The notes: a model not told the origin generated them from the letters alone. DNA of 64,000 nt from Candidatus Kaiserbacteria bacterium (GCA_016432285.1 CP066682.1:188273-252272), one strand, 5' to 3'; counted from the first letter of the stretch, positions 1,295-55,931 are shown. Translations and numbers: made by a program.

Positions 1295-2266
1295 ATGCGC
1301 GCTCTTTCATTCCGCCAACTCTTCGCCATCCTCTTCCTCGCGTTCGCGGCCTTGCTCGCCGCATCCTCTCTCTCGGCGTGGGTCGGCCCCACCGCTTCTC
1401 CCCCCGACGAGAACGTCCCGGCTCCGGTCAACGTCGGTGCCGACAGTCAGATTAAAGAAGGCGGACTCGCGGTCGACTTTTTCAGTGTGTTCGGGACGCA
1501 ATATATTGAGGACAAGTTGGGTATCAATAAGACAAGCCCGGTCGTCGCACTTCATGTCGTCGGCTCCATGATCTTGGGCAACGGCGGCGAAGTATGCCAA
1601 GAGGTAACTGAAGGAGGCATCCGTTACAATTCGAGCTCCAATCAGCTCGAAGTTTGTGACGGCTCGGATTGGAGCGCGGTCGGTGGGGCATCCTCCGGTC
1701 CTGGTGCCGTTCAATACTCGACGCCCGGCACATACGAATTCACTGTCCCAACATACACGTCGTTGACGGCGACCGTGAAAGGAGCCGGAAGCGGCGGCGG
1801 AGGTGCTCAAGGCGCGAGCCATCACCCGTCGGAATATTCCTATATCTACTCGCACGGTACCGGCGGTACCGGGTCCGCTGGATCTGCGAGTTCATTTAAC
1901 ACGTCAGTCGTCGGTAATGGCGCGACGGGAGGGACGGGCGGTGGAGGCGGGCAGTATGGTTATAGCGCCGGGTCTGCAGGCACTCCAGGCACGGCGAGCG
2001 GCGGCACGACGAATACTACGGGTGGAGGCGCTCCAGGTGGAAGCGGGGGCGGATACTGCTACTACGGCGGACTCAATGGTGGCAGCGGTGCCGCGGGAGG
2101 CAATGCGGTCAAGACATACGCAAGTGGAGATCTGACACCGGGCACATCGATCACGGTTGTCGTCGGTACGAGCGGCGGAGGCGCAGGCGGATCTGTCGGG
2201 GACTACTGCACGGGAGGCGCTGGTACTTCTGGCTCGAACGGCTCAGTAACGATTTCGTGGGAGTGA
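1295..2266 (+). CDS. secreted Gly-rich protein; N-terminal ~60 aa nearly identical to the product of 559..1290
   Basis: Internal ATG 4 nt after the upstream stop; shared N-terminal module (..LSFKQLFAILFLAFAALLAASSLSAWVGPTASPPDxNVPAPVNVG); long GGxGG-rich C-terminus. Confidence 0.55.
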   Translation: MRALSFRQLFAILFLAFAALLAASSLSAWVGPTASPPDENVPAPVNVGADSQIKEGGLAVDFFSVFGTQYIEDKLGINKTSPVVALHVVGSMILGNGGEVCQEVTEGGIRYNSSSNQLEVCDGSDWSAVGGASSGPGAVQYSTPGTYEFTVPTYTSLTATVKGAGSGGGGAQGASHHPSEYSYIYSHGTGGTGSAGSASSFNTSVVGNGATGGTGGGGGQYGYSAGSAGTPGTASGGTTNTTGGGAPGGSGGGYCYYGGLNGGSGAAGGNAVKTYASGDLTPGTSITVVVGTSGGGAGGSVGDYCTGGAGTSGSNGSVTISWE

Positions 2267-5031: not shown

Positions 5032-5448
5032 ATGACAGCGGAAGCGACAAAGAAGCCTCGCGCCTCGCGCGCGAAGACGGCCAAGAAGGCCGACGATTCC
5101 GCTGCACCCCAAGCTCCGGCCCGCGCCAAAAAAGCGGAGGCTGCGCACCGCCTTCGCATCAAGGTCCGCGCCTACGAGCACGGCGTCCTCGATAATTCCG
5201 TGAAGCAGATCATCGACACGGCTGCCCGCTACAATGCGGAAGTCGTTGGTCCGGTGCCGCTTCCGATCGACATCAAAAAGTACACCGTCAACCGCGCCGC
5301 ATTCATCGACAAAGACTCCCGCGAGCAGTTCGAGATGCGTATCCACAAGCGCATGATCGACATCCTCAACCCAGCACCGAAAGTCATCGAAGCCCTCACC
5401 AACATCGACCTCCCTTCGGGTGTTTCGATAGATGTAAAGATGATGTAG
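5032..5448 (+). CDS. rpsJ: 30S ribosomal protein S10, with ~40-aa Lys/Ala-rich N-terminal extension
   Basis: Core HRLRIKVRAYEH...VVGPVPLP...matches S10; the only in-frame Met is at 5032. Confidence 0.9.
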   Translation: MTAEATKKPRASRAKTAKKADDSAAPQAPARAKKAEAAHRLRIKVRAYEHGVLDNSVKQIIDTAARYNAEVVGPVPLPIDIKKYTVNRAAFIDKDSREQFEMRIHKRMIDILNPAPKVIEALTNIDLPSGVSIDVKMM

Positions 5449-8428: not shown

Positions 8429-9529
8429 TCAAGAGAAGTCGTTGTGCGGTTCGTAGTACGTTTCGGGGGAAAGGTCGTCGTGGAAACCGAGCTTCTCGTC
8501 GATAAAGCTGTAGGAGTGCTGCTGGAGAAAGAGCGCCTTCAGCGAGCCGCGCTTGATCTTCGAATCACGGTACTCGCGATCCTTGGTGTAATCGTAAATG
8601 ATGTCCTTGGCGGGCCACTTGTAGGTGTTCCATGTGTCTTTGATGCGCTTGTCGGGATTCGCCATGCTCCACCGCTGGAAGTCGTCGGTGCCGAAGAAGT
8701 GCACGTACTTCGTATCGATATAGCGCTGATCAATGTTACGGATGTTGCGTGGAGCCGTATGCAAAAGCCGCCGCAGATGCACAGCCTGCCACTTGAGGGC
8801 GAAGTTGATCCACCACAGATAGAGAAAATTCGTTTCGATTGAGAGGGGAGCGGCGGCCTTGAGGCGCTCGAAGAGGTCGAGATAGAAATCAGTCGTCGCC
8901 TGGTCTCCGAGCGATCGGCCGAAAAAGTCTGAAAAAAGATCGCGGCTGTACGGCTTGTGGAGATGCTCATCACCGAGCTGGTGGATGAGCTTGCCGACCA
9001 CGTCCGATCCGAAGAGCTGATCGTTGTGCTCGCCATCGAGGAGCACGTCCTTGGTGCCGAGTCGGTGCGAAAAGAGCACCGATGAGTCGACGCGCAGTTT
9101 GCCGTGGATATGCTCCTCCCAAAATCGCGGATTTTCCGTGATTGACTCCTCGCTGAGGAGCACCACGATGCGCCTCTTCTGCTCGTTGCTCCCCATCTTG
9201 AGGAGCGATATGAGGACGAGCGTGCTATCGATGCCGCCCGACCACGAGACACACACATCCACGTCCGCCACATCGGCTTTGGAGAGGATTTCCCTCGCCC
9301 GCGCGTCGCATATTTCTTCGTAGGTTTTTGTGAATCCTTCAAATGCGGGGAGGGGAGCGAGAGCTTTGAGCTTGATCGGCATGCGAATCGTGGCCGTCCG
9401 ATCCACGATCACGACCCCGGGCCCGTAGATATCAAAAAAGCGCGAGAACTTCGTGAAGCCGGGAAAGCGGTCCGGGTCGGCGCGCAGGACCTTCCGCGGT
9501 CTGTAGTAGAGCAGCCGCATGAGCCTCAC
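8429..9529 (-). CDS. asparagine-synthetase-C-domain-like PP-loop ATP pyrophosphatase (no glutaminase domain)
   Basis: VDVCVSWSGGIDSTLVL (AsnB-type SGGxDS); GTG 9529 overlaps the upstream stop (GTGA); alternative ATG at 9520. Confidence 0.7.
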   Translation of the reverse strand: MRLMRLLYYRPRKVLRADPDRFPGFTKFSRFFDIYGPGVVIVDRTATIRMPIKLKALAPLPAFEGFTKTYEEICDARAREILSKADVADVDVCVSWSGGIDSTLVLISLLKMGSNEQKRRIVVLLSEESITENPRFWEEHIHGKLRVDSSVLFSHRLGTKDVLLDGEHNDQLFGSDVVGKLIHQLGDEHLHKPYSRDLFSDFFGRSLGDQATTDFYLDLFERLKAAAPLSIETNFLYLWWINFALKWQAVHLRRLLHTAPRNIRNIDQRYIDTKYVHFFGTDDFQRWSMANPDKRIKDTWNTYKWPAKDIIYDYTKDREYRDSKIKRGSLKALFLQQHSYSFIDEKLGFHDDLSPETYYEPHNDFS

Positions 9530-10218
9530 GAGAGCGTGCCGACGTACGGGTCGCGAAAGAAAGTCTCCGTGATCGCATCCAGTTCCGCCACAGCCTTCGC
9601 CTTCTTTATTTTGTTGAAGTAGATGATCCGCAGGAGCTCCGTCTTCGCGAGCTGCTCCGTAGCGATCTTTGATTTGAAAATAATGTCGTCGGCTGCCTGG
9701 CGGGGCGACAGGCCGGCGTAGTCGGCGTACAGGAGCACGTGCGGATATTCGGGAAGTACGACCTCGTCGTACCCCGCGTTCTTAAAAGAGAGCGCTTCGA
9801 TCCGTTTTTCGAGGTACACCGAATCCTGAAGCGAAATTCCCGTCTCGAATCGGAGGCGAAGACGGCTGATGTTGCGCATGATCGTTTGCACGACTTTCAA
9901 CTTGCCGACCGCGAGCGCGGACTTCTCTCGGATCTCTTTCGTAAGAAGCTTCGGTGGCGTTTGCTCAAAGAGTCGCTGCTCAAAGTTCCATGTCCACGTG
10001 GGGTACTCCGCAGGTCCCGTCGTCGTGAGAAAGAGGGAGTCGCGGTAGTGCGGATACTGGATCCCGTAGGCGCCGATCGTATCTCCCGTGCACTCGTTGA
10101 GAAAGACGATGCCGGGCGCGGTCGTATCGAAAGCGAGCACAATATGCGTGCCGTATTCCACAAGAATGCTCGGAAGAAAAGGTGGTTGCATACGATCGTT
10201 TGGATTCAATAGTATCAA
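9526..10218 (-). CDS. hypothetical protein, translationally coupled to the AsnB-like gene
   Basis: 230-aa ORF; 4-nt overlap with the downstream gene; no recognisable motif. Confidence 0.5.
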   Translation of the reverse strand: MILLNPNDRMQPPFLPSILVEYGTHIVLAFDTTAPGIVFLNECTGDTIGAYGIQYPHYRDSLFLTTTGPAEYPTWTWNFEQRLFEQTPPKLLTKEIREKSALAVGKLKVVQTIMRNISRLRLRFETGISLQDSVYLEKRIEALSFKNAGYDEVVLPEYPHVLLYADYAGLSPRQAADDIIFKSKIATEQLAKTELLRIIYFNKIKKAKAVAELDAITETFFRDPYVGTLS

Positions 10219-10282: not shown

Positions 10283-10564
10283 ATGAACCGGCTCGTGCGT
10301 GTGGGAAGGCAAGCAGGGAGAGTGGTACGCTCGCTTTCTCTCGTCGTAGCCGGGCTCTTCGTCGTTGCATTCGGGGTCGGCGGCAGAAATGCGGAATCCG
10401 ACGGACAAAATCAGGGTGTGCTCGCCAACATCAAGGACGAATTTACCGCGTACGCCGACGCACCCTATTCGCAGGCATCCTACTACTCCCAGGCGGACTA
10501 CGGCTGGTGGGGCGGTGGCGACGGCGGTGGCGACAGCGGCGACGCTGGCGGTGGGGACGCCTGA
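10283..10564 (+). CDS. module copy 1, small TM peptide (93 aa): basic N-terminus, TM helix, AYADAPY motif, Tyr-rich, GWWGG, Gly/Asp-rich acidic tail
   Basis: Internal ATG at 10283 in ORF 10088..10564; paralogous to 17141..17392 and 49292..49570. Confidence 0.55.
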   Translation: MNRLVRVGRQAGRVVRSLSLVVAGLFVVAFGVGGRNAESDGQNQGVLANIKDEFTAYADAPYSQASYYSQADYGWWGGGDGGGDSGDAGGGDA

Positions 10565-10571
10565 TACACCT

Positions 10572-11741
10572 ATGCAACCGAGCATCAAGATCATCCTCTC
10601 GGCCGTTTTGATTCTCGGCGCCCTCTCTTTTGCCGCCTTCTACTACTTCGCGATCGCGCCATTGAGTCAGCCGTCGGACGAGGGGCGACCGCGCGCCGAG
10701 AGTCTGACGGAGGCCATGCAAAAGCAGCTCGCGGGCGACCGGACGGGAGCCTATCAAAGCGCGCAGCGGCAGATCGCGGAAGGCGGCACCGAAGAAGATA
10801 CGGTGCTTGCGAAAATCACCGCGGCCAATTCGCTTTTCCAGATTGCGACTACGACCGAGGGCAGAATTGCCGCGATGCGGATACTAGCAAACGCGTATTC
10901 GGAAGGACAGAGCCCGCAGAGCAAAGCACTTGTCCTCAATGCGCTCGTGTGGACGCTGATTTTTAATGCCAATACCGAGCCTGTTACGCTCGCCGCGTTT
11001 GGTTTCAATGAGTTCCAGCCGTTTGCGGTCGAAGGTGCCAACGGAAAGTCGTTTCAGAACCTCCTGAAGCAATCGATCAGTCTCGCGCCGACACGCCGGG
11101 CGTACTACATGCGTGCAGTCGTCGCGTCGCGAGAGCTCGAGCGCAATTTCGCACCGGACTCCGCAAAGCTCCTGTCCGCCGCCTCTTCCGATTCGGTGCG
11201 CGAAATTGCGCAGAACATTCTCAAATTTATCGAGCAGGGAGATGCGCTCGCGCGGGCAGCGCCGCTCGACTCGGGGATAGAGGAACTCGACGACATCACG
11301 GAAGCGCAAAATCAAATCTACCGAGGGCTCGCGCTCTCCGCGGTCGCACTTGTCGACTCCTCGCAGCTTTCAAGCGCCCTCGGTGCTTTCCAAGCGGTCT
11401 TGGATACGGCCAGAAGCGGGGAGCCCACCGTGGCCGTGAATGTGATGGCCGCATACGCGCACCTGTATGCCGGTCGGATCGCGGCTGCAGTGGGTGGATC
11501 GGCGAATACGGCAGTTGCTCGCTCGCACCTTGCCGACTTCGCGGCATCCGCAGAGGCATCGCCGAAGGATTACGTCAAGATTTACGAAATGTTCCAGTGG
11601 CTCCGAGGCGGCGCTTCGATTCCCGCATCCGAGCAGGCGGAGAGCAGGCAGTATCGCCTCTACCAAACGTACTCATCGCTCGCGGCGCTCTCTCCCGATT
11701 TCAAAAATTTCCTCGCTTCAGTCGGTTGGCAGTTCGAGTAG
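10572..11741 (+). CDS. module copy 1, ~390-aa N-terminally anchored protein (paralog of 17408..18595 and 49578..50771)
   Basis: ATG 8 nt after the peptide stop; N-terminal TM; shared early motif LQ.L..G.Y.AA and C-terminal F(K)NFL.S.GW.(F/L)E. Confidence 0.6.
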   Translation: MQPSIKIILSAVLILGALSFAAFYYFAIAPLSQPSDEGRPRAESLTEAMQKQLAGDRTGAYQSAQRQIAEGGTEEDTVLAKITAANSLFQIATTTEGRIAAMRILANAYSEGQSPQSKALVLNALVWTLIFNANTEPVTLAAFGFNEFQPFAVEGANGKSFQNLLKQSISLAPTRRAYYMRAVVASRELERNFAPDSAKLLSAASSDSVREIAQNILKFIEQGDALARAAPLDSGIEELDDITEAQNQIYRGLALSAVALVDSSQLSSALGAFQAVLDTARSGEPTVAVNVMAAYAHLYAGRIAAAVGGSANTAVARSHLADFAASAEASPKDYVKIYEMFQWLRGGASIPASEQAESRQYRLYQTYSSLAALSPDFKNFLASVGWQFE

Positions 11742-12589: not shown

Positions 12590-12611
12590 GCGACCCCACT
12601 CATCAAAGCGA

Positions 12612-12640
12612 GGCCCGGCGGTCAATGCCGGGCCTTTTCT
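12612..12640. terminator. bidirectional rho-independent terminator (GGCCCGGCggtcaatGCCGGGCCtttt)
   Basis: Perfect 8-bp GC stem plus T-run between convergent genes. Confidence 0.55.
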
Positions 12641-13845
12641 TAGTCATTAGCTGGCAGTGATCCGCTCTTTTCCGTATACCTCTCGAGCGCAGCGATACAG
12701 ACGTGTGGCTCGGAGACGCGCCCGCACTCCGCAGAGAGCGAGTCCACGCGTGTCTCGGATTCCATATTTTGAAACGCTGCATTAAAACACTGTTGCTCTC
12801 TCTCGCTTTCTCCCACGGCACGACAGTACTCAAGCGCTTCCGTGTAGTTTCTGTTATCCACGTACTTGAGTACGACACCGACGCTGCACGCATCCCTTTG
12901 CGAAACATTCCCAAAGTTTCCGCACTGACCCGGGTCGCTCGAGGCACTTTGATTGAGCTGCTCGACACTTGAATAGCCGTACCCCGTATAGCAATCTCGC
13001 TGGTCGCCCCCCGTGAACGCATTGCACGCCTCAACGATGAGCGCCGCCCGCTCGCTTGTATCACGTCTTGTTCGCGCCAGCAGATCACGCTGAAAACCGG
13101 CAAGCTCGAAGAAGCATGCGTGTCGATATTGCGCGTCAACGGAGTCGCACGGGTAAGCAGGATCGTCTGTTGCGATCGTCGCGGATGCGGAGCGAAAAGC
13201 GAGCGAGTTTTCTTCGCCCACCGCTTCCATAAAGACCCCGAGGTAACACCGCTCCGCCTCGTCTCCATCGGCGATTGATTCGCAACTTTTGAGTGCTTCA
13301 TCGAAATCCTGCGTGGCGATGTAGAGTAAGTGTCCGATGCCGTGGCAGAGCTGCGTCTTAGCCGTACAGTACTTTGCGCCGATCGCGCCTATCGTCGCAG
13401 CATCGGCGTGCGCGATATCCTCGTCGTACGCATCGGCGAGTTCTGCGACGGCTGCCGCAGCGATAGCGCCGTGCTTACAGCCATTGCGACACAGGCCTGT
13501 GCATGCAGCGAGCGTCTCCTCAAGCCCGTCTCCTCTCTCTATGGACAGCTGACCGATTGCGTGCGCCGTTACGTGGCAGCTCGATACGACCGATGGGGGA
13601 GACGATTCGTTCGTAATGTACCGCATAAGCTTCGGCGTGGAGAATTGTTGCATGAGTTGATTCACGGTTTCTTGCACGCAAGAAAAATCCGCGCGATAGC
13701 CATGGGAGGCGGCAGGGTTCTCCGAGAAACAGCGCGCAAGCTCCTCGGGCGTCATCATTTTCGGTGATTGCATGTACGCGAAAATGAAAACGACGATTGC
13801 GATCACGCCGATGACGAGAATCTTTTGCCCGCTCCAACGGTTCAT
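12640..13845 (-). CDS. membrane-anchored Cys-rich repeat protein (~26 Cys)
   Basis: N-terminal TM, then repeated C...C(Y/F) motifs; 4-nt start/stop overlap with the upstream gene. Confidence 0.55.
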   Translation of the reverse strand: MNRWSGQKILVIGVIAIVVFIFAYMQSPKMMTPEELARCFSENPAASHGYRADFSCVQETVNQLMQQFSTPKLMRYITNESSPPSVVSSCHVTAHAIGQLSIERGDGLEETLAACTGLCRNGCKHGAIAAAAVAELADAYDEDIAHADAATIGAIGAKYCTAKTQLCHGIGHLLYIATQDFDEALKSCESIADGDEAERCYLGVFMEAVGEENSLAFRSASATIATDDPAYPCDSVDAQYRHACFFELAGFQRDLLARTRRDTSERAALIVEACNAFTGGDQRDCYTGYGYSSVEQLNQSASSDPGQCGNFGNVSQRDACSVGVVLKYVDNRNYTEALEYCRAVGESEREQQCFNAAFQNMESETRVDSLSAECGRVSEPHVCIAALERYTEKSGSLPAND

Positions 13846-15551
13846 GCCTTCTTTTCGTCCTTCTCAACGCAATAGATTTCGTTGGCGAAGGTTGGTACGA
13901 AGAATCGGCTGGTCTCCGCGTTGTACGCGATCTTGTTGGTTATCCGTTCTGTAAGGGTGATAGAAGCCTGTTCCTTCCCGGTGCGTGCGTCGATTTCCGT
14001 CAGCCGACCGGTGTTCGATCCAATGAAGACGCTGTCGCCGATAATCTTCGGGCTCGCGAAAATGCGGGCGCCGCTGCTCCAGCGCCATACCTCCTGGAAG
14101 CTCGAAAGGTCAACGCAGTAGAGATTCTTATCGAGCGACCCGATAATCGCCGTGTTCTCATAGAGCGCGGGAGTCGCGTAGAAGCCGTACTCCGCCTGGA
14201 ATCGGCCGGCCTCTGTGCCGGTGCGGCGATCAACGAAGTAAAGAGTTCCAGCGGTGCTGCCGAAGATCACACGGTCGTGATTCCTGTCGTATGCAAAAGA
14301 CTCCTTGATGTCGTTACTGCTGAAACCAACGTCAAGTTCCGCGTCCGATGGTTCGGCCGGCGAAAACTTCCACTTCAGCGCCCCCGTCTTGGCATCGAGG
14401 AGGTACGCGGCACCGTCGTTTGATCCGACGATAACTTCGCGGGTGTCTTTTAGGTAAAGCGGCGAAGAGTGCGTATAGCAGGGCATCTCCCGGTATTCCC
14501 ATATTTTTTTTCCGCTGTGCGCATCGAGCGCCACGACCCCTCCCCGCTTTCTCCAGAGGCCGAACTCAAGGCCCACGAAGACAAGATTCAAATCGACAGC
14601 GACGGCGGGGGAGGAGCCGATCCAATCTGCTTCAAGAAATACCCACTTTCGCTTGCCGGACGTCCGGTCGAGGGCGTAGAAGTTGCCGTCGTATCCACCG
14701 AAAAAGACGCTCTCGCCAAGGAGTGCGGGGGATGAAAAGATCCCCTTTCCCTTCATGTGCAGCAGAATGCGGTACGACCAAGCCACTTGACCCGTGTCCT
14801 GCCGGATCGCCCACATGGTCCCGTCGTCAGAGCCAACGTATACATGCGTGTCGTCAATCGCTGGTTCGGATTTTGGCACCACGTAAAAAAAGCTCGGGTT
14901 CTTGGCGGCGAATTTCCAGCGAACCATGAAGGGCCTTGAATGCACGGGCTCCTTGTGGGTCAAATTGCTGACGCCGAGAGTTTCACTAAAGTCATCGAGC
15001 GTAAATACGGAGAAAAGTTCGATGTTCTTTTTCCGCAGGTATTCGTAGTGCTCAAGATCTCGGAACCGTATCAGCGTCCACACGGCCTGCACCCGGTGTC
15101 CGAGCGCCTCCAGCACTTCCACCTGTCGCTCGATGCTCTTGCCGCTGTTTATCAGATCATCGACCAGAATGATCGGAGCGCCCGGAGCGATTTCGCCTTC
15201 AATGGCGCGCATCAATCCATCCTTTTTTCGCGACTTACGAATAAAAAATCCGGAAGTCTTCTTTTTTGATACCTCTCCCGCGTGGACGGTGAGCGCAGTA
15301 ACGAGTGTGATAGCGGCTGTCTCTATTCCTCCTATTTGGAAGGGGAAACGTTCGCGGAATGTATCCCAAAAAATCTCGGCAATATCCTCGAGCGCATCGC
15401 TTCGCAAGAGAATACGTCGCAGGTCAAAGAGCCAGCCGCTCTCCTTTAATTTTTTCCTACTCGAGACGATGTTCTCATGCTCGGCCCGGACATACGCGCT
15501 GTTCTCAATGAGTTCTTTTAGGTGCGCTTTATGTTCTTCGATTCCATCCAT
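13842..15551 (-). CDS. fusion protein: N-terminal type-I phosphoribosyltransferase (OPRTase-like) domain plus C-terminal PQQ-like beta-propeller repeats
   Basis: PRPP-binding motif PIILVDDLINSGKSI; about 7 repeats of G(T/N)hY(A/C)hD..(T/S)G...W; minus-strand TGCTATAGT promoter at 15575-15583. Confidence 0.65.
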   Translation of the reverse strand: MDGIEEHKAHLKELIENSAYVRAEHENIVSSRKKLKESGWLFDLRRILLRSDALEDIAEIFWDTFRERFPFQIGGIETAAITLVTALTVHAGEVSKKKTSGFFIRKSRKKDGLMRAIEGEIAPGAPIILVDDLINSGKSIERQVEVLEALGHRVQAVWTLIRFRDLEHYEYLRKKNIELFSVFTLDDFSETLGVSNLTHKEPVHSRPFMVRWKFAAKNPSFFYVVPKSEPAIDDTHVYVGSDDGTMWAIRQDTGQVAWSYRILLHMKGKGIFSSPALLGESVFFGGYDGNFYALDRTSGKRKWVFLEADWIGSSPAVAVDLNLVFVGLEFGLWRKRGGVVALDAHSGKKIWEYREMPCYTHSSPLYLKDTREVIVGSNDGAAYLLDAKTGALKWKFSPAEPSDAELDVGFSSNDIKESFAYDRNHDRVIFGSTAGTLYFVDRRTGTEAGRFQAEYGFYATPALYENTAIIGSLDKNLYCVDLSSFQEVWRWSSGARIFASPKIIGDSVFIGSNTGRLTEIDARTGKEQASITLTERITNKIAYNAETSRFFVPTFANEIYCVEKDEKKA

Positions 15552-15611
15552 ACGAGCGATTTCGAGGCCGGTATACTATAGCACCGCGCCCACAGTATAA
15601 TAATTTATCGT

Positions 15612-16904
15612 ATGAGCCCCGGTGCTTCATTCTTTGACTCTCGCGCCGAGCAGAGCTTTCTGCGTTTTTATCGTCGTATCTTTTCGATTGCTGAGATAGA
15701 AGGAAGTAGAGTGCTGCAGTGGGTGTTTGGCGCGACGATCCTCTCATACTTCATCGCATTTGATTCTCGGCTTTACTCCGACGCGCTCACCGTAGATGCC
15801 TTTTTATCGGGTACGCACCGATGCTGGCCATACTTTCAATCGTGCGGTGAGTGGCTCTTTCTGCGTGCGCTCCCAGCCGGCTACTCCCAAATGCTGCTTT
15901 ACATGGCGCTCTTCGGTCTTCTGGCGCTTGCCGTGTATCTCATGTACAAGAAAGAATGGGTACTGGCGCATATCGCGCTCATCCCGAGTTTCCTCTGGCA
16001 CTTCCTCGGTTCGTTCGTCCTTAGCGGAGAGCTTGCGGGCAATTATGACTACTACCTTTTTCTTCTTGCGTTCGTGTTGCTTTTTGTGCCATACAAGGAG
16101 TTCTTTCTCAAACTTCTCTTGGTGCTCTTCTATTTCCTGGCATCGTTATCGAAAATTCACGAATCGTGGATTCTCGGCACGTACTTCTCCTCGTTGAAGA
16201 CAGGATTGCCACTCTTTCCAGACTGGTCGATACCGATTTGGACCAACCTCGTGATCTTTATGGAAATGGTCGCGGCGTGGTTCCTGCTCTCGGGCCGGAG
16301 GCTACTACAGCGTGCCGTATTCATTTTTTTCGTCGCTTTTCATCTCTACTCCGGCATTTTTGTGGGATTCCGGTATCCGGCCACCGTGCTGCCGACACTC
16401 CTCATCCTCTTCGGTCCTCTCTACGCCTATACGCCGCCGCCGCTTACGCGTCGCGCACTCGCCGGGTGGATACTGGTCTCTCTCATGTTTATGGCACAAC
16501 TTTCGCCACTCCTCGTGCGGGGCGATGAGAAACTCACACTCGAAGCAAATAAGTTCGGTCTCTACATGTTTGAATCCAACCACCAGTGCGTCTCAAGCGC
16601 GACGGTATTTCTGAAGGATGGTACGCAATACGAAGTTCGGGCCGAGAGCGTTTCCGCCCGGTCGCGGTGCGATCCGTACTATTACTGGTTTTCGCTCCGC
16701 GCGCCGTGCGAGAGGGATCAAGCAATTGGGCGAATTGTGTGGACGTTTGACCACTCGATCAACGGCGGTCCGTTTCTCCGGATCGTCGACGAGCAGGACG
16801 CGTGCTCGCTTTCGTATGATCCCTTTCGACACAATGCGTGGATCAAAACGGAAACCGACGCTCCAGAGGTTATCGGATGGCCCGTAGAAAATGTCTATGA
16901 TTGA
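15612..16904 (+). CDS. polytopic membrane protein with C-terminal Cys-containing soluble domain, unknown function
   Basis: ~8 hydrophobic helices then a soluble ~140 aa; TATAAT at 15596-15601, 10 nt upstream of the ATG. Confidence 0.55.
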   Translation: MSPGASFFDSRAEQSFLRFYRRIFSIAEIEGSRVLQWVFGATILSYFIAFDSRLYSDALTVDAFLSGTHRCWPYFQSCGEWLFLRALPAGYSQMLLYMALFGLLALAVYLMYKKEWVLAHIALIPSFLWHFLGSFVLSGELAGNYDYYLFLLAFVLLFVPYKEFFLKLLLVLFYFLASLSKIHESWILGTYFSSLKTGLPLFPDWSIPIWTNLVIFMEMVAAWFLLSGRRLLQRAVFIFFVAFHLYSGIFVGFRYPATVLPTLLILFGPLYAYTPPPLTRRALAGWILVSLMFMAQLSPLLVRGDEKLTLEANKFGLYMFESNHQCVSSATVFLKDGTQYEVRAESVSARSRCDPYYYWFSLRAPCERDQAIGRIVWTFDHSINGGPFLRIVDEQDACSLSYDPFRHNAWIKTETDAPEVIGWPVENVYD

Positions 16905-17109
16905 AGCAACGTCGAGCATCCCGATTCTGGCGCTAACCGGGCTCGAAGGAAACGCGCCGACCGCACTGTCCCCTCTACAGGTCTTTCTTGCTTCCCAATT
17001 CGATACGATCGCCGCATTCTGGTGGACGATCAGCGTCATCGTCCTCCTCACCGTCGTTATTCGCGCGTTTTCTGCGATACATAAGCAGTTTCCCCAGGGT
17101 GATCGTTGA
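16897..17109 (+). CDS. possible small single-TM protein overlapping the stop of the upstream gene
   Basis: ATGATTGA overlap with the upstream stop; one hydrophobic helix; weak support. Confidence 0.25.
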   Translation: MIEATSSIPILALTGLEGNAPTALSPLQVFLASQFDTIAAFWWTISVIVLLTVVIRAFSAIHKQFPQGDR

Positions 17110-17140: not shown

Positions 17141-17392
17141 ATGGAAGTCTCCCTCCGGCGGGTCCTGAAGATCCTCGTTTACGCTCTCATGCTTGCCGCG
17201 GGGGTCATTCTCGCGTTCGTGTCATATCGGGATAAGGAAAACGCGACAGGGGGTTTAGTATCGACTGCCTACGCGGATGCGCCGTATGCGCAGAGCGCGT
17301 ATTACGGACAGGGGGGATATGGGTGGTGGGGCGGCGACGGCGGCGACGGAGACGATGACGGCGATGATGATAGTGGCGATGGCGATAGCTGA
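17141..17392 (+). CDS. module copy 2, small TM peptide (83 aa) with AYADAPY, GWWGG and poly-Gly/Asp tail
   Basis: Internal ATG 17141; motifs STAYADAPYAQSAYYGQGGYGWWGGDGGDGDDDGDDDSGDGDS. Confidence 0.55.
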   Translation: MEVSLRRVLKILVYALMLAAGVILAFVSYRDKENATGGLVSTAYADAPYAQSAYYGQGGYGWWGGDGGDGDDDGDDDSGDGDS

Positions 17393-17407: not shown

Positions 17408-18595
17408 ATGCCAGAAGCAGGAGAAGTACAGCAGCCTCAAACGCACTACGGTCGATCGATCTTGATCGGCAGTACCGTACTTCTCGTTGTCGGATTCGGA
17501 GTCGCGTACTTTCTCATCGTCATGCAGGTCCCCTCGCGCGGGGGAACTACCGGCGGAGTAGGCAGATTGCAGCCACAAACGCTCCAGCAGCTCAAAAAGG
17601 CTGGCAACTACGAGGCCGCGCTTGCGGAATACGAACGGATCATGAGCGATCCCCTTAAGGACGCGAATGAGAAAGGGTTTGCGGTCATCAGTGGAACCAA
17701 CCTCAAGTTCACGCTGACGGCGGACATAAAAGACATGATCGAGGACGTGCAGCGATTAAAGGAGGTCGTGCTTGATCCGTCGGTGGAGACTCGCGTGCGT
17801 GTCGAGGCGCTCAATACGCTTTCGGCATCCGTCTGCCGATCCGGACGAGATCCGATCATTTTCGATGAGCTCTATAAGGATGAGCCATTCAAGCGATACC
17901 TCGTGCCGGGCGATCCCGATCTCTCCGCGCGTCTCATGGCGGAGTGGTCATATGACATGTCGCCCACGTCCTTTGCCGCGATTCGTATTGCACGTTGGTA
18001 CTCCGATCAAGTATTCAGAAACGGCACGCTCTCGGGAGAGAAGGTGAGTGAATACACGGCAGAAGCAGAAAAGTATATGGAGATCGCGGGGCAGCTCGTG
18101 GAAAAGGAGCTCAAGCGCTCCACGGATCGCACGCGGAGCATTACTTATATCGCGTATCGTATGTGGACGGCGATCACCGTTGGCCGACTTGCGACGGTGA
18201 AGGACGAGTACCGGGCGCAGTACAAAACCGAATTCGAAGACTTACTGAACTTCCTCACGGCCAATAAGAACGTGGGCGTTTTCGATTACCTGTACCTGGT
18301 GCGCGAGCACTACGCGCGCTTCATGATCCGCATAGACGGCAACACCGCCGGAGCAAAGGCCCAGCTCGACATCCTTGCGCGCGAGCTCCAAGAGTTTCCA
18401 ATACCGGACTCCAGTACCTACGTGAGACTTATGCGCAACGAGTCTACGTACAATCCCGGCGGATACCTCTGGAACAACTACAAAACCCTCATGTCGATCT
18501 CGCCGAGTTTCAAAGCGACGGTAGAGGAGCTCCTCATTCCCGACCCTGAGACTATCGGCAGTTCTGCGGCACCCCTGGAAACAGCGGAGTTTTAA
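17408..18595 (+). CDS. module copy 2, ~395-aa N-terminally anchored protein
   Basis: ATG 15 nt after the peptide stop; N-terminal TM; LQQLKKAGNYEAALAEY motif shared with paralogs. Confidence 0.6.
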   Translation: MPEAGEVQQPQTHYGRSILIGSTVLLVVGFGVAYFLIVMQVPSRGGTTGGVGRLQPQTLQQLKKAGNYEAALAEYERIMSDPLKDANEKGFAVISGTNLKFTLTADIKDMIEDVQRLKEVVLDPSVETRVRVEALNTLSASVCRSGRDPIIFDELYKDEPFKRYLVPGDPDLSARLMAEWSYDMSPTSFAAIRIARWYSDQVFRNGTLSGEKVSEYTAEAEKYMEIAGQLVEKELKRSTDRTRSITYIAYRMWTAITVGRLATVKDEYRAQYKTEFEDLLNFLTANKNVGVFDYLYLVREHYARFMIRIDGNTAGAKAQLDILARELQEFPIPDSSTYVRLMRNESTYNPGGYLWNNYKTLMSISPSFKATVEELLIPDPETIGSSAAPLETAEF

Positions 18596-18599
18596 TCTT

Positions 18600-19382
18600 G
18601 TGCGAGTCGCACTCCTGTCATTACGAGGGGGCCGGTTGGCAGCCGTTGCTGTAGTGCTTGGCGTATTGGCATTCGTTGGAAGCAGCGACATGACAGTACT
18701 TCTCCAAAACGCTCAGTTACTTTTCTTTCCGTCTGCCGCCTCAGCGTATAACTTTGGCAATCAGCACTTCGACGCGCGCAGTGGATACGAATACGACATC
18801 GACCGGGCGGAGTCGCTCTACCAAGAAGCGCTCCGCATCGACCCACAGTTTCCCTACGCGCGACACCAGCTCGCCCGCATCTCATTTTTGAGGGGCGATT
18901 TCAAGAGCGCGCTTGTGCTGATCAACGAAGAGCTCTTCACGAATCCCGATCCCTCTCCGTCCTCGTACTACATCCGGGGCCTCATTGAGGGGTACGCAGG
19001 ACGCTACGACGACGCAGCCAAAAGCTACGAGCGCTATCTGGAGCGTGATCCGCGCAATTGGGCGGCGATCAATGATTACGCGTGGGTGCTCCTGCGGGCA
19101 GGGAGGTCAGAGGATGCCGCGATCGCCACCGCCGAGGGCCTCGCATATTTTCCCGAGAATCCATGGCTTTTGAACAGCAACGCGACCGCGCTTTTTGAGC
19201 TTGGCCTCACGAAGGAGGCGAGCGCCGTCATACAAAAGGCGGGGGAGAGCGCAGCTTCCATCACCGAACCAATGTGGCTCACGGCGTATCCCGGCAACGA
19301 TCCTCGGATCGCGCGACAGGGAATCGAGACGCTCCAGCGTGCGATTGCGTCCAATAAGCTCCGCTTTGCCGATCCCGAATAA
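18600..19382 (+). CDS. TPR-repeat protein with N-terminal TM/signal
   Basis: GTG start 4 nt after the upstream stop; repeats of Y..G.......A...Y...L..DP. Confidence 0.6.
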   Translation: MRVALLSLRGGRLAAVAVVLGVLAFVGSSDMTVLLQNAQLLFFPSAASAYNFGNQHFDARSGYEYDIDRAESLYQEALRIDPQFPYARHQLARISFLRGDFKSALVLINEELFTNPDPSPSSYYIRGLIEGYAGRYDDAAKSYERYLERDPRNWAAINDYAWVLLRAGRSEDAAIATAEGLAYFPENPWLLNSNATALFELGLTKEASAVIQKAGESAASITEPMWLTAYPGNDPRIARQGIETLQRAIASNKLRFADPE

Positions 19383-21498: not shown

Positions 21499-22107
21499 AT
21501 GAAATTCATGCTCGGCACCAAGGGTCGTATGACGCAGATTTTCGATGAAAGCGGCGTCGTGAAGGCCGCGACGATCGTCGTCGCGGGGCCTCTCACCGTG
21601 ACACAGGTGAAAACCAAGGATAAGGATGGTTACGCCGCCGCGCAGGTGGGCTTTGGATCCATGAAGGAAAAGAACGTGTCGCAGGCAAAAAAGGGCCACC
21701 TCAAGGACCTCGCGTTTTCTCGGCATCTTCGAGAGTTTCAGCCGGAGGGCGAGGTGAAGCGCGGGGATTCCATCGACGTGTCGATCTTCGCGCCGGGCGA
21801 CACGGTCGCCGTTTCGGCGATCTCCAAGGGCAAAGGATTCCAGGGCGTCGTAAAGCGACACGGCTTTTCGGGCGGCCCCCGCAGCCACGGCCAGAAAAAT
21901 AAGGAGCGCGCACCCGGCTCCATCGGTGGCGGCGGACGCGCGGGTGGCCGCGTAGTGAAGGGCATGCGGATGGCTGGTCGCATGGGAGGAGATCGGATCA
22001 CCGTCAAAAACCTGAAAGTCTTGCAGGTCGACCCTGCGTCGCACACGCTTCTCATTTCCGGCGCCATTCCCGGCTCACCCGGCACGCTCGTCGAGATTCG
22101 CGGCTAA
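21499..22107 (+). CDS. rplC: 50S ribosomal protein L3
   Basis: MTQIFDE...; gene order; internal ATG at 21499. Confidence 0.95.
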   Translation: MKFMLGTKGRMTQIFDESGVVKAATIVVAGPLTVTQVKTKDKDGYAAAQVGFGSMKEKNVSQAKKGHLKDLAFSRHLREFQPEGEVKRGDSIDVSIFAPGDTVAVSAISKGKGFQGVVKRHGFSGGPRSHGQKNKERAPGSIGGGGRAGGRVVKGMRMAGRMGGDRITVKNLKVLQVDPASHTLLISGAIPGSPGTLVEIRG

Positions 22108-35511: not shown

Positions 35512-38358
35512 ATGCCTCCATCGACGATGGAGCGGCCGATCCGCCAGTTGGCGGAGCCGCAATCAGAAAAATTTAAGACGCCCGAAGACGAGCTCCGCTA
35601 TTTACGCGAGCGCGTGAAGGAGGCGGAAGCGCAGCTTGAGGCGGCACCTAACCGCTTTGAGAGCGATCGCATCGCCAAGCGCGAGGTAGCGGCGTACGCC
35701 GAGATACCGCAAGCCACGATTCTCCACGAGAGTTTTGTCATGCCGGAGCATGAGAGCGTGCGGCACAAGCTCCGCCTCGAGCCGGAGGCACACGACGTGC
35801 AGATGGACGAGCTTTTGAAGATTGTAACGGAGCGGGGGGTACGCAACGCACTTGCGGTCTGCGCCAAGATGCGCAATCCGCACCTTCAAGACGACTTCCA
35901 CCGGGTGATCACACGCTACATCGCCGAAGGTTTGCCGCAAAATGGCGCGCCGCCTCCCGAGAAAATCCGGCGCGCGCTCGACCTGGTGCTCTTTGCGGTC
36001 GACCCGCAGGCGCACGGCGAGCGCGACAAGCAAGACAACAGCCAACACCGCCTCGAGCAGGTGCTCGCCTCTTCTGAGCAGCTCTACGCCGGCCTCCTCT
36101 CGCTCATTTCGCCGCACGAGGGTTTCTCGCTGGAGATCGCGGTGCCCGAGGGCACCGAAGCGGCCGCACTCTTTTTAGCAGTACCGCGCTTTAAAAAGGA
36201 TCTTGCGGAGCGTCTGATCGCATCAGTCTTCCCCAACGCGCGCATTTCTGAGGAGCGCGGAGACTACAACATCTTCAACGTCGAGGGTGAGAGCGCGGCC
36301 GCGTATGCGACCCTCGCCGACCATCCGGCGTACCCGCTGAAAACACCCGACATGTTTGAGCACGATCCCATGAACGTCCTCCTCGCGGCCTTCGCGAAGA
36401 TCGCCAAGCACGGCGAGGGCGCCGCGCTCCAGATCCTCGTCTCGACCGAGGGTGACCGGTACAACCACCACTTCAAAAAGATGATCCGTCGCCTCGAAAA
36501 AGGCAAAACGCTGCACCGCGCGCTCGCCGTCCCGGAGAGCGCCATCGGCGAAATGCTCTACGATCTCTCGCATACGATGCTGAAGAGCAAAAAGCAGCTC
36601 GAAGACGAACAGCAGCGCCAGTTTCGACGCAACGCCGACAAGGTGGCGAGCGAGGAGATGGAGCGGAAGATCAAGAGCCGCATCGGGCCTACCATTATCC
36701 GCTTGGCAGCCTCGGCGAAAACGAAAGAGCGCGCCGAAGACATCCTCGGCAATCTCATTGCGCCCTTCAACCAGTACGACGACCCGAAGGGCAATCACCT
36801 CGTCTTTAAACACGTCTCGAAGTGGAGCCTCCAGTCGTTCCTGCGCGATTTTACCTTCCGCATTTTCGATCACTCGTACGCGATGCCGCTCTCGCTCTCG
36901 GAAATCACCTCGATCTTCCACTTCACCGCCGAGCGCGTGCACACTTCGCGCGAGCTGAAGCGCTCCTTCGCGAAGCAAGCCCCCGCTCCGGTGGAGATGC
37001 CGGGCGAGGGGATCACGCTCGGGGTCAACAGGTACGGCGCGGAGGAGCGCCCGGTCAAGTTCGGCACTATGGATCGCCTCCGCCACTGTTACGTGATCGG
37101 TCAGACCGGTACCGGTAAGACGGGACTTTTGAAAAACATGATCATTCAGGACATCAAAAACGGCGAGGGGGTGGCCTACGTCGACCCGCACGGCACTGAC
37201 ATCGAGGATATTCTCGCGGCGATCCCGCCGGAGCGCGTGAAGGATCTCATCTACTTCGATCCCGCCCACACGGAGCGCCCGATGGGTCTCAACATGCTGG
37301 AGTACGACCGTTCACGGCCCGAGATGAAGACCTTCGTCGTCGACGAAGTGTACGGCATTTTCCGCAAGCTCTATGCCGACGTGCCCGAAGCCTTCGGCCC
37401 GATGTTTGAGCAGTACTACCGCAACGCCGTCCAGCTCGTCGTCGAAGACCCGGATTCCGGCAGCACCTTCGTCGAGATTCCGCGTATTTTTGCGGACCCA
37501 ACATTCAGGAACCTGAAGCTCTCTCGCTGCCAGAATCCGATCATCGTGCAGTTTTGGAAAAAGATCGCACTTGAGGCGCAGGGTGATCCGTCGCTCGAAA
37601 ATGTCGCGCCCTACATCACTTCCAAATTCGACGTCTTCCTCACCAACGACATCATGCGCCCCGTGGTGGCGCAGGAAAAATCCGCCTTCGATTTCCGCAA
37701 AATAATGGACGAAAAGAAGATCTTTCTCGCCAACCTCTCAAAAGGGCGGCTCGGGGACCGGAACACCTCGCTCCTCGGCCTCATCCTCGTATCGAAGTTC
37801 CTCCAGGCCGCCTTTTCTCGCGTGGAGGCGCGCGGAGAATTTCCGGTCTTCTACCTCTACATCGACGAGTTCCAAAACTTCGCGACGCCCTCGATCGGCA
37901 CGATCCTTTCGGAAGCCCGCAAATACAAACTCTCGCTCGTGATCGCGCACCAGTTTATCGCGCAGCTCGACGAAAAGATTCGCGATGCGGTCGTCGGCAA
38001 CGTGGGCACCAAGGCAGCCTTTCGCGTGGGTACGACCGACGCAGAATTTCTCGCCAAGCAATTCGAGCCCGTGTTCGGACAGCAGGATCTCGAAAACCTC
38101 CCGAACCGCCATGCGGTACTCGCGCTTCTCGTGAACGGCGTGCCGGCGCGGCCCTTCTCGATCAGCACCGAAAACCTGCCAACCTTCGACTTCAGCAACG
38201 TGGAGACTTTGAAACAGCTTTCGTACGAGACTTTCGGGCGCGCTCGCGAGGAGGTGGAGGCGGAAATCCGCAAAAAGTTCGACGCGAGCTACGGCCAAAA
38301 AGCGCCCGCATCGGATCCGTTTGCGCCCCCCGACTTTGCCCCGCACCCATCCGTATAA
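35512..38358 (+). CDS. large P-loop NTPase (948 aa): C-terminal TraD/TraG/VirD4-HerA-FtsK-like ATPase domain and ~500-aa N-terminal domain of unknown function
   Basis: Walker A GQTGTGKTG; DPHG; Walker B FYLYIDEF; LVIAHQ; no TM. Confidence 0.55.
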   Translation: MPPSTMERPIRQLAEPQSEKFKTPEDELRYLRERVKEAEAQLEAAPNRFESDRIAKREVAAYAEIPQATILHESFVMPEHESVRHKLRLEPEAHDVQMDELLKIVTERGVRNALAVCAKMRNPHLQDDFHRVITRYIAEGLPQNGAPPPEKIRRALDLVLFAVDPQAHGERDKQDNSQHRLEQVLASSEQLYAGLLSLISPHEGFSLEIAVPEGTEAAALFLAVPRFKKDLAERLIASVFPNARISEERGDYNIFNVEGESAAAYATLADHPAYPLKTPDMFEHDPMNVLLAAFAKIAKHGEGAALQILVSTEGDRYNHHFKKMIRRLEKGKTLHRALAVPESAIGEMLYDLSHTMLKSKKQLEDEQQRQFRRNADKVASEEMERKIKSRIGPTIIRLAASAKTKERAEDILGNLIAPFNQYDDPKGNHLVFKHVSKWSLQSFLRDFTFRIFDHSYAMPLSLSEITSIFHFTAERVHTSRELKRSFAKQAPAPVEMPGEGITLGVNRYGAEERPVKFGTMDRLRHCYVIGQTGTGKTGLLKNMIIQDIKNGEGVAYVDPHGTDIEDILAAIPPERVKDLIYFDPAHTERPMGLNMLEYDRSRPEMKTFVVDEVYGIFRKLYADVPEAFGPMFEQYYRNAVQLVVEDPDSGSTFVEIPRIFADPTFRNLKLSRCQNPIIVQFWKKIALEAQGDPSLENVAPYITSKFDVFLTNDIMRPVVAQEKSAFDFRKIMDEKKIFLANLSKGRLGDRNTSLLGLILVSKFLQAAFSRVEARGEFPVFYLYIDEFQNFATPSIGTILSEARKYKLSLVIAHQFIAQLDEKIRDAVVGNVGTKAAFRVGTTDAEFLAKQFEPVFGQQDLENLPNRHAVLALLVNGVPARPFSISTENLPTFDFSNVETLKQLSYETFGRAREEVEAEIRKKFDASYGQKAPASDPFAPPDFAPHPSV

Positions 38359-39649: not shown

Positions 39650-40336
39650 ATGTCCGCGCGCAAGATTATCGATCCGAACCACATGGCGGTTCCGCGCAAT
39701 TTCTGCCGCCTGCCGCAAAGTTACGGCGTGGTCAAAATCTGCGTATCCGGAGCCGCCGACACGGGGTATTGCGGGCTCGATGCGTTTGAAAAGGCAAAAG
39801 AGGTGGGCCGCGAGATCGCGCGACAGGGCGCGATCATCACGACCGGCGCTACCACCGGCTTTCCGCTCTACGCAGCCATGGGCGCCAAGGACGAATGCGG
39901 ATTTTCGATCGGTTTTTCTCCCGCCGCTACGGAGCGCGAGCACGTCGAGGTCTACAAGCTGCCGCTCGAATATATGGACGTGATTTTGTATACCGGTTTC
40001 GGCTATTCGGGTCGCGATTTGCTGCTGGTGCGCTCGTCGGACGCCGTCATCATCGGATGCGGCCGCATCGGCACCCTCAATGAGTTTTCCGTCGCCTTTG
40101 AAGACCACCGCCCCATCGGAGTGCTTGAGGGCACGTGGGAGACCGACGAGATCATTCGCCGCGTCATCGAATCGGCGCATCGCCCCAACAGCAAGATCAT
40201 CTACGACTCCGACCCGAAGGCGATGGTAGAGCGGCTCATCGAGCTTGCCATGAAAGACAAGGAGAATGCGAATCTCGTCTTCAACAACCCCGAAAAGTGG
40301 GACGCCGCCGGCAAGAACGCCGAGTACATTCTCTAA
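39650..40336 (+). CDS. LOG/TIGR00725-family Rossmann-fold protein
   Basis: Motifs KICVSGAAD, IITTGATTG, VIIGCGRIGTLNE; TGCTATACT 8 nt upstream of the ATG. Confidence 0.65.
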   Translation: MSARKIIDPNHMAVPRNFCRLPQSYGVVKICVSGAADTGYCGLDAFEKAKEVGREIARQGAIITTGATTGFPLYAAMGAKDECGFSIGFSPAATEREHVEVYKLPLEYMDVILYTGFGYSGRDLLLVRSSDAVIIGCGRIGTLNEFSVAFEDHRPIGVLEGTWETDEIIRRVIESAHRPNSKIIYDSDPKAMVERLIELAMKDKENANLVFNNPEKWDAAGKNAEYIL

Positions 40337-55886: not shown

Positions 55887-55931
55887 CACAGAGAGTATAC
55901 AGCAAAGGCCGCAGTGCTATACTGGCCCCTG

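Follow-up and report, generated by a model that had tools for sequence, protein, structure and literature searches.

A conserved fusion of an orotate phosphoribosyltransferase-like domain and a beta-propeller in Patescibacteria, and its possible place in a modular peptide system

The fold of orotate phosphoribosyltransferase (OPRTase, PyrE; EC 2.4.2.10) recurs in PurR, PyrR and archaeal GfcR, where a phosphoribosyltransferase (PRTase) domain stands in a non-biosynthetic context. BamB/YxaL-type propellers share an eight-bladed fold; propellers generally serve as protein-docking platforms, and the adenylating enzyme ACSF4, which is cytosolic, carries a propeller of this kind as a fused domain. 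A SagD-type YcaO protein and SagB are arrayed together in thiazole/oxazole-modified microcin (TOMM) and linear azol(in)e-containing peptide (LAP) systems such as SagBCD and McbBCD, and GGCX, a carboxylase, docks on the propeptide of secreted proteins and then modifies their acidic stretches. Counterparts of several of these are found in or around a single gene of Candidatus Kaiserbacteria bacterium (GCA_016432285.1, CP066682.1:188273-252272; this stretch of 64,000 nucleotides, all of which was analysed, is called the window below). The gene, F, fuses an OPRTase-like domain to a BamB-like propeller and recurs near candidate peptide-modification genes in the Patescibacteria, or Candidate Phyla Radiation (CPR), which account for a large part of the diversity of bacteria and most of whose conserved proteins have no known function.

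The open reading frame (ORF) lies where a first-pass annotation, made by a model from the sequence alone, had placed it, and encodes 569 amino acids (aa). Its parts are as follows (PRPP, phosphoribosyl pyrophosphate; PQQ, pyrroloquinoline quinone).

13842..15551, minus strand: fusion gene F, 569-aa protein with a PRTase domain and an eight-bladed propeller, predicted to be cytoplasmic
14937..15551, minus strand: N-terminal OPRTase-like type I PRTase domain, aa 1-205, from profile and solved-structure matches
15195..15248, minus strand: catalytic flexible loop, aa 102-119, FFIRKSRKKDGLMRAIEG, invariant or near-invariant in 70 homologs
15135..15173, minus strand: PRPP-binding loop, aa 127-139, IILVDDLINSGKS, with D131-D132 invariant and Asn135 at the Thr128 position
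13845..14936, minus strand: C-terminal BamB/PQQ-like eight-bladed beta-propeller, aa 206-569, from Pfam, Foldseek and the strand pattern of the model

We searched a database of 5.8 billion proteins for relatives of F and inspected the best 120 matches for length and identity. These were mostly full-length (about 545-598 aa, with few truncated) and 47-68 per cent identical to F, and every named source among them was a CPR lineage. The window's own F was also returned, under the NCBI label 'PQQ-binding-like beta-propeller repeat protein' from an 859-kb contig of Candidatus Kaiserbacteria. In 86 loci assembled independently of one another, a single uninterrupted ORF spans both domains. When one genome was scanned for each species, at least 505 species-representative genomes, a lower bound, had an F relative. 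Going by record titles, almost all of these are Patescibacteria, with members of the Kaiser-, Wolfe-, Morani-, Doudna-, Nomura-, Giovannoni-, Adler- and Campbellbacteria, the Minisyncoccia and the 'Paceibacterota'. An alignment of 70 family members was used both to score residue conservation and as input for an AlphaFold2 model, in which the arrangement of the two domains is confident (pLDDT 93.2, predicted TM-score (pTM) 0.84). Positions conserved in at least 90 per cent of the homologs make up 25 and 27 per cent of the two domains, an about equal constraint. The first-pass annotation had named a frameshift or misassembly joining two genes as a way in which its proposal could fail. Because the fusion is continuous across the 86 loci, recurs in at least 505 genomes and is mostly full-length among the best 120 proteins, with a pTM of 0.84, we exclude such an artefact, whose probability we put at practically nil. 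F is a real, conserved two-domain family, and no characterised protein with both domains was found.

The N-terminal 205 aa match solved OPRTases (2p1z, E = 4.8e-10; human 2wns, 6.3e-10; M. tuberculosis 5hkf, 8.6e-8; together with 2yzk the range is 5e-10 to 2e-7). The family profile matches Salmonella PyrE, in a reference sequence that reproduces the published numbering, at E = 8.8e-11. Residues ~36-188 match the pyrE equivalog TIGR00336 at E = 7.6e-18, with 64.9 bits against a cut-off of 106.8; Pfam PF00156 gives 19.3 bits, short of its gathering score of 26.3, with a precomputed match present in about half of the F homologs listed; and NF002620, 'OPRTase-like protein', matches weakly (6.2e-5). 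The profile thresholds on which the PRTase proposal had been made to depend are thus formally failed. The proposal holds nonetheless, because the E-values are significant, solved OPRTases match and the motifs are in place, and we class the domain on its sequence as a type I PRTase of OPRTase descent. Assignment of the fold rests on these matches and on the model of whole F, whose beta-alpha-beta order fits a PRTase.

The canonical type I PRPP-binding loop reported earlier is present at aa 126-140 with its flanks (PIILVDDLINSGKSI), and IILVDDLINSGKS follows the type I PRTase pattern of four hydrophobic and two acidic residues, then x-x-[TSN]-[ST]-G-x-[ST]. Across the 70 homologs K106, R108, E118, G119, D131 and D132 are invariant, and R105, S107, K109, K110, G112, N135, R162 and R164 are at least 90 per cent conserved. 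R105/K106/K109/G112 align with R99/K100/K103/G106 of the Salmonella OPRTase and D131/D132 with D124/D125, so that F keeps the D-D of the PRPP loop, the R-K-x-x-K-x-x-G and the E-G after the loop. A search with the N-terminal domain alone yielded wider representatives, 106 of which were checked for motifs; the acidic pair is kept in 105. Given this conserved PRPP/Mg acidic pair and the mobile catalytic loop, F very probably binds PRPP and has retained loop-mediated catalysis. N135 aligns with T128, a position that contacts the substrate in OPRTases and is Thr in every OPRTase aligned here. It is Asn in all 72 locus copies with a recognisable motif (72/72) and in 92 of the 106 wider representatives, with His in six. 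Near the position of the orotate-binding Arg156, R162 and R164 are both candidate counterparts, depending on the alignment register (R164 aligns with the Arg of the 'DR' in human OPRT, and the profile alignment sets F163 opposite R156). The family does not conserve the 'K/S-S-G' stretch of the hood.

Residues ~206-565 of F match PQQ_2 (4.9e-39) and Beta-prop_ACSF4 (1.6e-45), so the ACSF4/AASDH propeller is the best Pfam model for the C-terminal domain. Compared by Foldseek, the modelled propeller superposes on the designed protein Cake8 (TM-score 0.93, root-mean-square deviation 2.1 Å) and on BamB (TM-score ~0.85). Its PQQ/BamB-like nature is as first described, but the model has eight blades and not about seven. 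Two more specific identities were considered and rejected. As a BamB, F scores 99.9 bits against the TIGR03300 cut-off of 285, far too low, and where BamB has a lipoprotein signal sequence F has neither a signal peptide nor a lipoprotein signal and begins with a PRTase domain; these bacteria probably lack the outer-membrane BAM machinery. As a PQQ-dehydrogenase, it scores 67 bits against the TIGR03075 cut-off of 480 and again has no signal peptide. F has no transmembrane or other hydrophobic segment (maximum 1.45 in a 19-residue Kyte-Doolittle scan) and is therefore predicted to be cytoplasmic, so that the surface-associated context suggested at first is not supported.

Searched exhaustively, the N-terminal domain alone finds 79 representatives (50 per cent clusters) below 1e-30 and 454 below 1e-10; 149 representatives were retrieved and checked, and 132 also carry the propeller. 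Five contigs hold two F copies each (L017, L043, L051, L069, L074/L080); on the last of these (CAYQQI010000001.1) each copy has its own nearby YcaO gene. Some longer relatives carry additional domains of tailoring enzymes: a formyltransferase (P0140), a HlyC-type protein acyltransferase (P0209, P0241), an Asp/Asn beta-hydroxylase (P0224, and P0264 without the propeller), a Stf0 sulfotransferase (P0257) and a radical SAM domain (P0259). In Campbellbacteria RB_MAG_00022 (GCA_947311625.1), the F homolog (L005, 6001-7776, on a contig shared with L060) has 14 in-frame TGA codons, all at conserved Trp positions, and a single TGG, on a contig of 26.6 per cent GC. This genome appears, from its codon pattern, to assign TGA to Trp, as code 4 does, and not to Gly (code 25), the reassignment known from other CPR lineages.

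To characterise the surroundings of F we clustered all ORFs from 85 non-redundant loci, counting as neighbours those within 6 kb of F. The recurrent ones were the following.

SagD-type YcaO protein: 46/85 loci; Pfam YcaO 120 bits, TIGR03604 2e-37
Tetratricopeptide (TPR) protein, family T: 45/85 loci; Pfam TPR
Single-transmembrane helical protein, family B: 43/85 loci; no Pfam match
SagB-family dehydrogenase: 37/85 loci; TIGR03605 152 bits (cut-off 78); median gap to F 21 nt
Multi-pass membrane protein, family A: 26/85 loci; median gap 52 nt
Rhodanese: 16/85 loci; NCBIfam rhodanese matches
DsbA/thioredoxin-like protein: 14/85 loci; Pfam and NCBIfam thioredoxin-like matches
Cys-rich protein, cluster c6: 11/85 loci; the gene downstream of F in the window is a member
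PaaK-like ligase: 10/85 loci; NCBIfam AMP-dependent ligase matches
DCC1-like oxidoreductase: 7/85 loci; Pfam DCC1-like

The YcaO proteins near F have the invariant Glu and Arg residues and a PHPFP C-terminus. YcaO, SagB and F occur in the order YcaO-SagB-F, all in one direction, in about 17 loci and as F-SagB-YcaO in four. Six convergent or reversed variants are also found: F forward with SagB and YcaO both reversed (L022, L041), F and YcaO forward with SagB reversed (L045, L065), and SagB and YcaO reversed ahead of a forward F (L070, and more loosely L019). As the linkage survives rearrangement, this indicates functional coupling of the three genes, as far as gene order can tell, and not just an order handed down. 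F has flanks of at least 6 kb on either side in 33 loci (well-flanked loci); of these, YcaO or SagB is near F in twenty (61 per cent), and at least one of YcaO, SagB, A, B, the small peptide genes described below and the Cys-rich gene lies within 6 kb in 32.

The array of a SagD-type YcaO protein and SagB, shared by ~60 per cent of well-flanked F loci, is that of TOMM/LAP systems, and small genes near F with Gly/Ser/Cys-rich C-terminal cores resemble the microcin B17 core. The two differ in several respects. The recurrent neighbour clusters contained no E1-like C protein, and the YcaO proteins, at ~500 aa, leave no room for a fused C domain; the third conserved gene is instead the PRTase-propeller, which we have not seen described in that place. 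The F-locus precursors differ too, with their hydrophobic N-terminal helix and their strongly acidic tails rich in Asp. Neither YcaO nor SagB is encoded in the window, whose peptides lack Cys.

In the window, F and the Cys-rich gene form one operon, divergent from a second that runs from A through c20, a peptide gene and B to TPR. Another peptide-B pair and the c13/c16 pair lie on the other side of F.

12640..13845, minus strand: Cys-rich membrane-anchored protein (c6), 401 aa, 20 Cys, ATGA overlap with F
12592..12636, directly after the Cys-rich gene: terminator-like GC-rich hairpin, 11-bp stem with 8 GC pairs
15552..15611: divergent intergenic region between F and A, 60 bp, with TATACT and TATAAT resembling -10 boxes by reading
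15612..16904, plus strand: family A, 430-aa multi-pass membrane protein with a predicted GGCX/HTTM-like fold (AlphaFold2 and Foldseek)
16897..17109, plus strand: small transmembrane protein, cluster c20, beside A in 13 loci
17141..17392, plus strand: Gly/Asp-tail peptide gene with a hydrophobic N-terminal helix, an AYA-DAP motif and the tail YAQSAYYGQGGYGWWGGDGGDGDDDGDDDSGDGDS
17408..18595, plus strand: family B, single-transmembrane helical protein, directly downstream of the peptide gene
18600..19382, plus strand: TPR protein (family T), Pfam TPR matches
10283..10564, plus strand: second Gly/Asp-tail peptide gene, tail …AYADAPYSQASYYSQADYGWWGGGDGGGDSGDAGGGDA
10515..11741, plus strand: second family-B paralog, downstream of the second peptide gene
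8429..10161, minus strand: c13 PP-loop ATPase (SGGIDST motif, 8429-9520) and c16 (9526-10161), a pair recurring near F

The stop of F overlaps the start of the Cys-rich gene by 4 nt (ATGA), as the first-pass annotation had it, and the membrane-anchored protein is translationally coupled to F in this genome. It has one N-terminal transmembrane helix followed by eight C-x(4-12)-C pairs, with 20 Cys in all and not ~26, and is 35 per cent identical to the member in L018 (E = 5e-73). Four loci had given the impression that this gene is not conserved, which the 85-locus analysis overturned: it is a recurrent minority neighbour, and YcaO or SagB is also present in eight of its 11 loci. The choice of partner was thus partly right, since the Cys-rich gene does recur, but it missed the more informative neighbours, namely the divergent operon with its GGCX-like, peptide, B and TPR genes and the YcaO and SagB of relatives. 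The hairpin, strong and placed at 12610-12636, is likely the end of the operon of F and the Cys-rich gene, its position being the only suggestive feature. A promoter and terminator scan of the region gave site counts not above chance, and the consensus promoter scan found no site in 15552..15611.

Some ~16 kb with F and the A, peptide, B and TPR genes sit between rpsJ (5032-5448) and rplC (21499-22107), which are normally adjacent; this placement is repeated in L002 and L006. The c13 protein (363 aa) is a PP-loop protein (ATP pyrophosphatase) with faint Asn-synthase and transglutaminase-like matches, c16 (211 aa) has no matches, and the pair is near F in about seven loci. A third family-B paralog lies far from F (49578-50771, plus strand) and is 51 per cent identical to the B protein of L048. 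A LOG-like SLOG protein (cluster 4, TIGR00725-related) is encoded at 39650-40336 (plus strand), and shorter SLOG cluster-4 genes abut F in L004 and L008. Adjacency to SLOG was rejected as a general clue, there being only these two loci, with 24-26 per cent identity to the window protein. Farther away, a 943-aa protein with a TraD/VirD4-like coupling-protein region (35527-38358, plus strand) probably belongs to a conjugation-like or type IV secretion system. Tandem ORFs at 559-1290 and 1295-2266 (plus strand) with near-identical N-terminal ~38 aa (…LSF[KR]QLFAILFLAFAALLAASSLSAWVGPTASPPD…) look, from that shared sequence, like a duplicated pair of secreted or surface proteins that have one signal sequence in common.

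The Gly/Asp-tail peptide genes were found in 34 of the 85 loci by similarity and in 39 by composition. They lie beside F, or divergent from F or from the YcaO-SagB-F array, and always directly upstream of a B gene. In each product a hydrophobic helix at the N-terminus is followed by the conserved motif [AV]-x-A-[DE]-x-P and then by a Gly/Asp/Ser tail with or without Cys or Tyr. In YcaO/SagB loci the tails are Cys-rich, e.g. SCTSCT… or GCGGGCSGGCSG, and the mean number of Cys in the last 45 aa is 4.07 with YcaO/SagB against 1.47 without (Mann-Whitney P = 1.5e-4, with no correction for phylogeny). The two window peptides (10283-10564 and 17141-17392) are Cys-free, with few Ser and with Tyr/Gly/Asp-rich tails, and so do not have the Cys/Ser/Thr-rich core of TOMM/LAP precursors; together with the absence of YcaO and SagB from the 64 kb, this fits the trend.

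Family A abuts F divergently in 15 loci and in tandem downstream in seven. The family had no Pfam match even at E<=5, VKG_Carbox and HTTM included, and its profile found no PDB sequence. Its AlphaFold2 model (pLDDT 90.9, pTM 0.90) found GGCX as each of its top 16 PDB matches by Foldseek (E = 6e-9 to 2e-3, probability 1.0, TM-score ~0.6), and A is on this model predicted to have the fold of vitamin K-dependent gamma-glutamyl carboxylase. Besides the GGCX/HTTM-like membrane fold, it has a C-terminal beta domain that contains Cys. Its conserved Lys and His residues include K162, K181 and H183. Of the homologs with a named source, nearly all come from CPR. Public gene calls are short at the N-terminus (333 aa at NCBI, 397 aa in Logan), and homologs cover 98-100 per cent of the 430-aa ORF starting at 15612. 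Since GGCX docks on and modifies acidic secreted proteins, a GGCX-like fold encoded beside exported-looking acidic peptides is suggestive, and A, like GGCX, is encoded beside apparently exported proteins with acidic stretches. A differs from GGCX in its ~15 per cent identity and the lack of an HTTM match, and the peptides near it are Asp/Gly-rich and not Glu-rich.

We found no paper on the PRTase-propeller architecture or on its link to YcaO/SagB and the GGCX-like protein, and nothing relevant on OPRTase in CPR, on ribosomally synthesized and post-translationally modified peptides with a PRTase, or on bacterial HTTM. The architecture is already visible to databases through automated labels, some members being annotated 'BamB/PRPP-binding protein' or 'OPRTase' (the latter by the Joint Genome Institute, JGI); a published description was not found.

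Our preferred and still tentative reading is that F is a PRPP-dependent tailoring or docking enzyme of a modular peptide system, whose peptides, membrane-anchored or secreted, have tails rich in Gly, Asp, Ser, Cys or Tyr. Its propeller would hold the precursor peptide or a partner enzyme, and its PRTase domain would move ribose-5-phosphate from PRPP onto the peptide or a heterocycle in it, or alternatively would couple the peptide process to PRPP binding. The step would be cytoplasmic and precede export. Once exported, the peptides would encounter the thiol-redox proteins and A, the GGCX-like membrane enzyme. Where a lineage has Cys-rich peptides, SagD-type YcaO and SagB would add azol(in)e rings. 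A narrower claim, that F is the first PRPP-dependent peptide phosphoribosyltransferase and ribosylates a side chain or a heterocycle made by YcaO and SagB, is in our view unlikely. Several points weigh against the preferred reading. Type I PRTases are not known to modify peptides, and no YcaO or SagB homolog occurs in the window. In a reciprocal test on 25 well-flanked metagenome loci, anchored on the YcaO subfamily with a profile from a five-sequence subset, SagB stood beside YcaO in 24 and F in only 10, mostly with the closest YcaO relatives; F is therefore a frequent but not obligatory partner in a modular system. The correlation between Cys content and YcaO ignores phylogeny. Much of the association of B, TPR and A with F could be inherited synteny in one class of compact genomes, given the position of the block between rpsJ and rplC and the family-B paralogs elsewhere in the window, and because B is multi-copy there, lying close to F counts for less in its case than for YcaO/SagB or A. 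A housekeeping role, too, would fit a family that is so conserved and nearly single-copy.

Such a role is taken furthest if F is the lineage's housekeeping PyrE, with a propeller for oligomerization, localization or regulation and a context that is inherited synteny in compact genomes. The best profiles and solved structures matching F are all OPRTases, the catalytic-loop and PRPP residues are conserved, JGI labels some members OPRTase, and F is conserved and widespread like a core gene. The pyrB (55914-56837, 312 bits, cut-off 237) and pyrC (54801-55844, 301 bits, cut-off 293) that the first-pass annotation saw in the window are genuine, with no second PRTase in the 64 kb, and no canonical or separate pyrE appeared in ~1.3 Mb of homolog loci, weak evidence at only ~20 kb sampled per genome. 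Yet F falls well short of the PyrE cut-off where pyrB, pyrC and purD (514 bits against 288) pass their own, and Asn for Thr128, the lost hood motif, the fused ~360-aa propeller, the paralog pairs on some contigs and relatives with acyltransferase, hydroxylase, sulfotransferase, formyltransferase or radical-SAM domains all argue against a plain PyrE, as does a peptide-modification context in which tight SagB/YcaO linkage outlasts rearrangement. The AT-rich Campbellbacteria genome that appears to read TGA as Trp, and that may be a reduced one, keeps F as well. These lines favour the earlier suspicion that the domain is no ordinary pyrE; we infer that its acceptor is not orotate and regard the housekeeping explanation as improbable. 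F might instead be a non-catalytic sensor of PRPP, a nucleotide or a phospho-sugar that docks or activates YcaO/SagB or other enzymes and gates maturation by nucleotide status, much like the regulatory role first proposed. It could then replace the C protein that is missing among the neighbours, a propeller is a typical docking fold, and PRTase-fold sensors exist (PurR, PyrR and GfcR). F differs from those in lacking a DNA- or RNA-binding domain, and its catalytic loop (R105-K110, G112, E118-G119) is conserved like the PRPP loop, which ligand sensing would not need; F also persists without YcaO/SagB nearby, as in the window, and YcaO/SagB without F. The nearly invariant loop means that a purely regulatory role is not favoured over catalysis, and we judge the sensor unlikely. 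A last possibility, that F ribosylates a small molecule or envelope precursor (a glycopolymer, lipid-linked sugar or unusual base) and the peptide genes are unrelated, would suit the Stf0, formyltransferase and LpxO-like Asp/Asn hydroxylase domains, which also act on sugars or lipids, the glycerophosphotransferase/NTP-transferase, glycosyltransferase or PaaK-like ligase genes adjoining F in some loci, and the LOG-like SLOG gene abutting it in two. Such neighbours are sporadic (PaaK-like in 10/85), however, and SagB/YcaO, A, the peptide-B pair and TPR dominate, so that this explanation seems very doubtful.

The F locus brings together acidic exported-looking peptides, a GGCX-fold relative, YcaO/SagB and a PRTase-propeller in a modular system of which no description was found in the searchable literature. 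Should F turn out to be the PyrE of the lineage, pathway reconstructions in which these genomes count as incomplete for pyrimidine synthesis would have to be corrected. If it acts on peptides, PRPP-dependent ribosyl-phosphate transfer would join ribosomal-peptide chemistry, and the locus would offer a handle on the surface and secreted molecules of these ultrasmall, often epibiotic cells. A true peptide phosphoribosyltransferase would be a new class of ribosomal-peptide modification in a Patescibacteria-wide system, possibly one of the cell surface or of host interaction.

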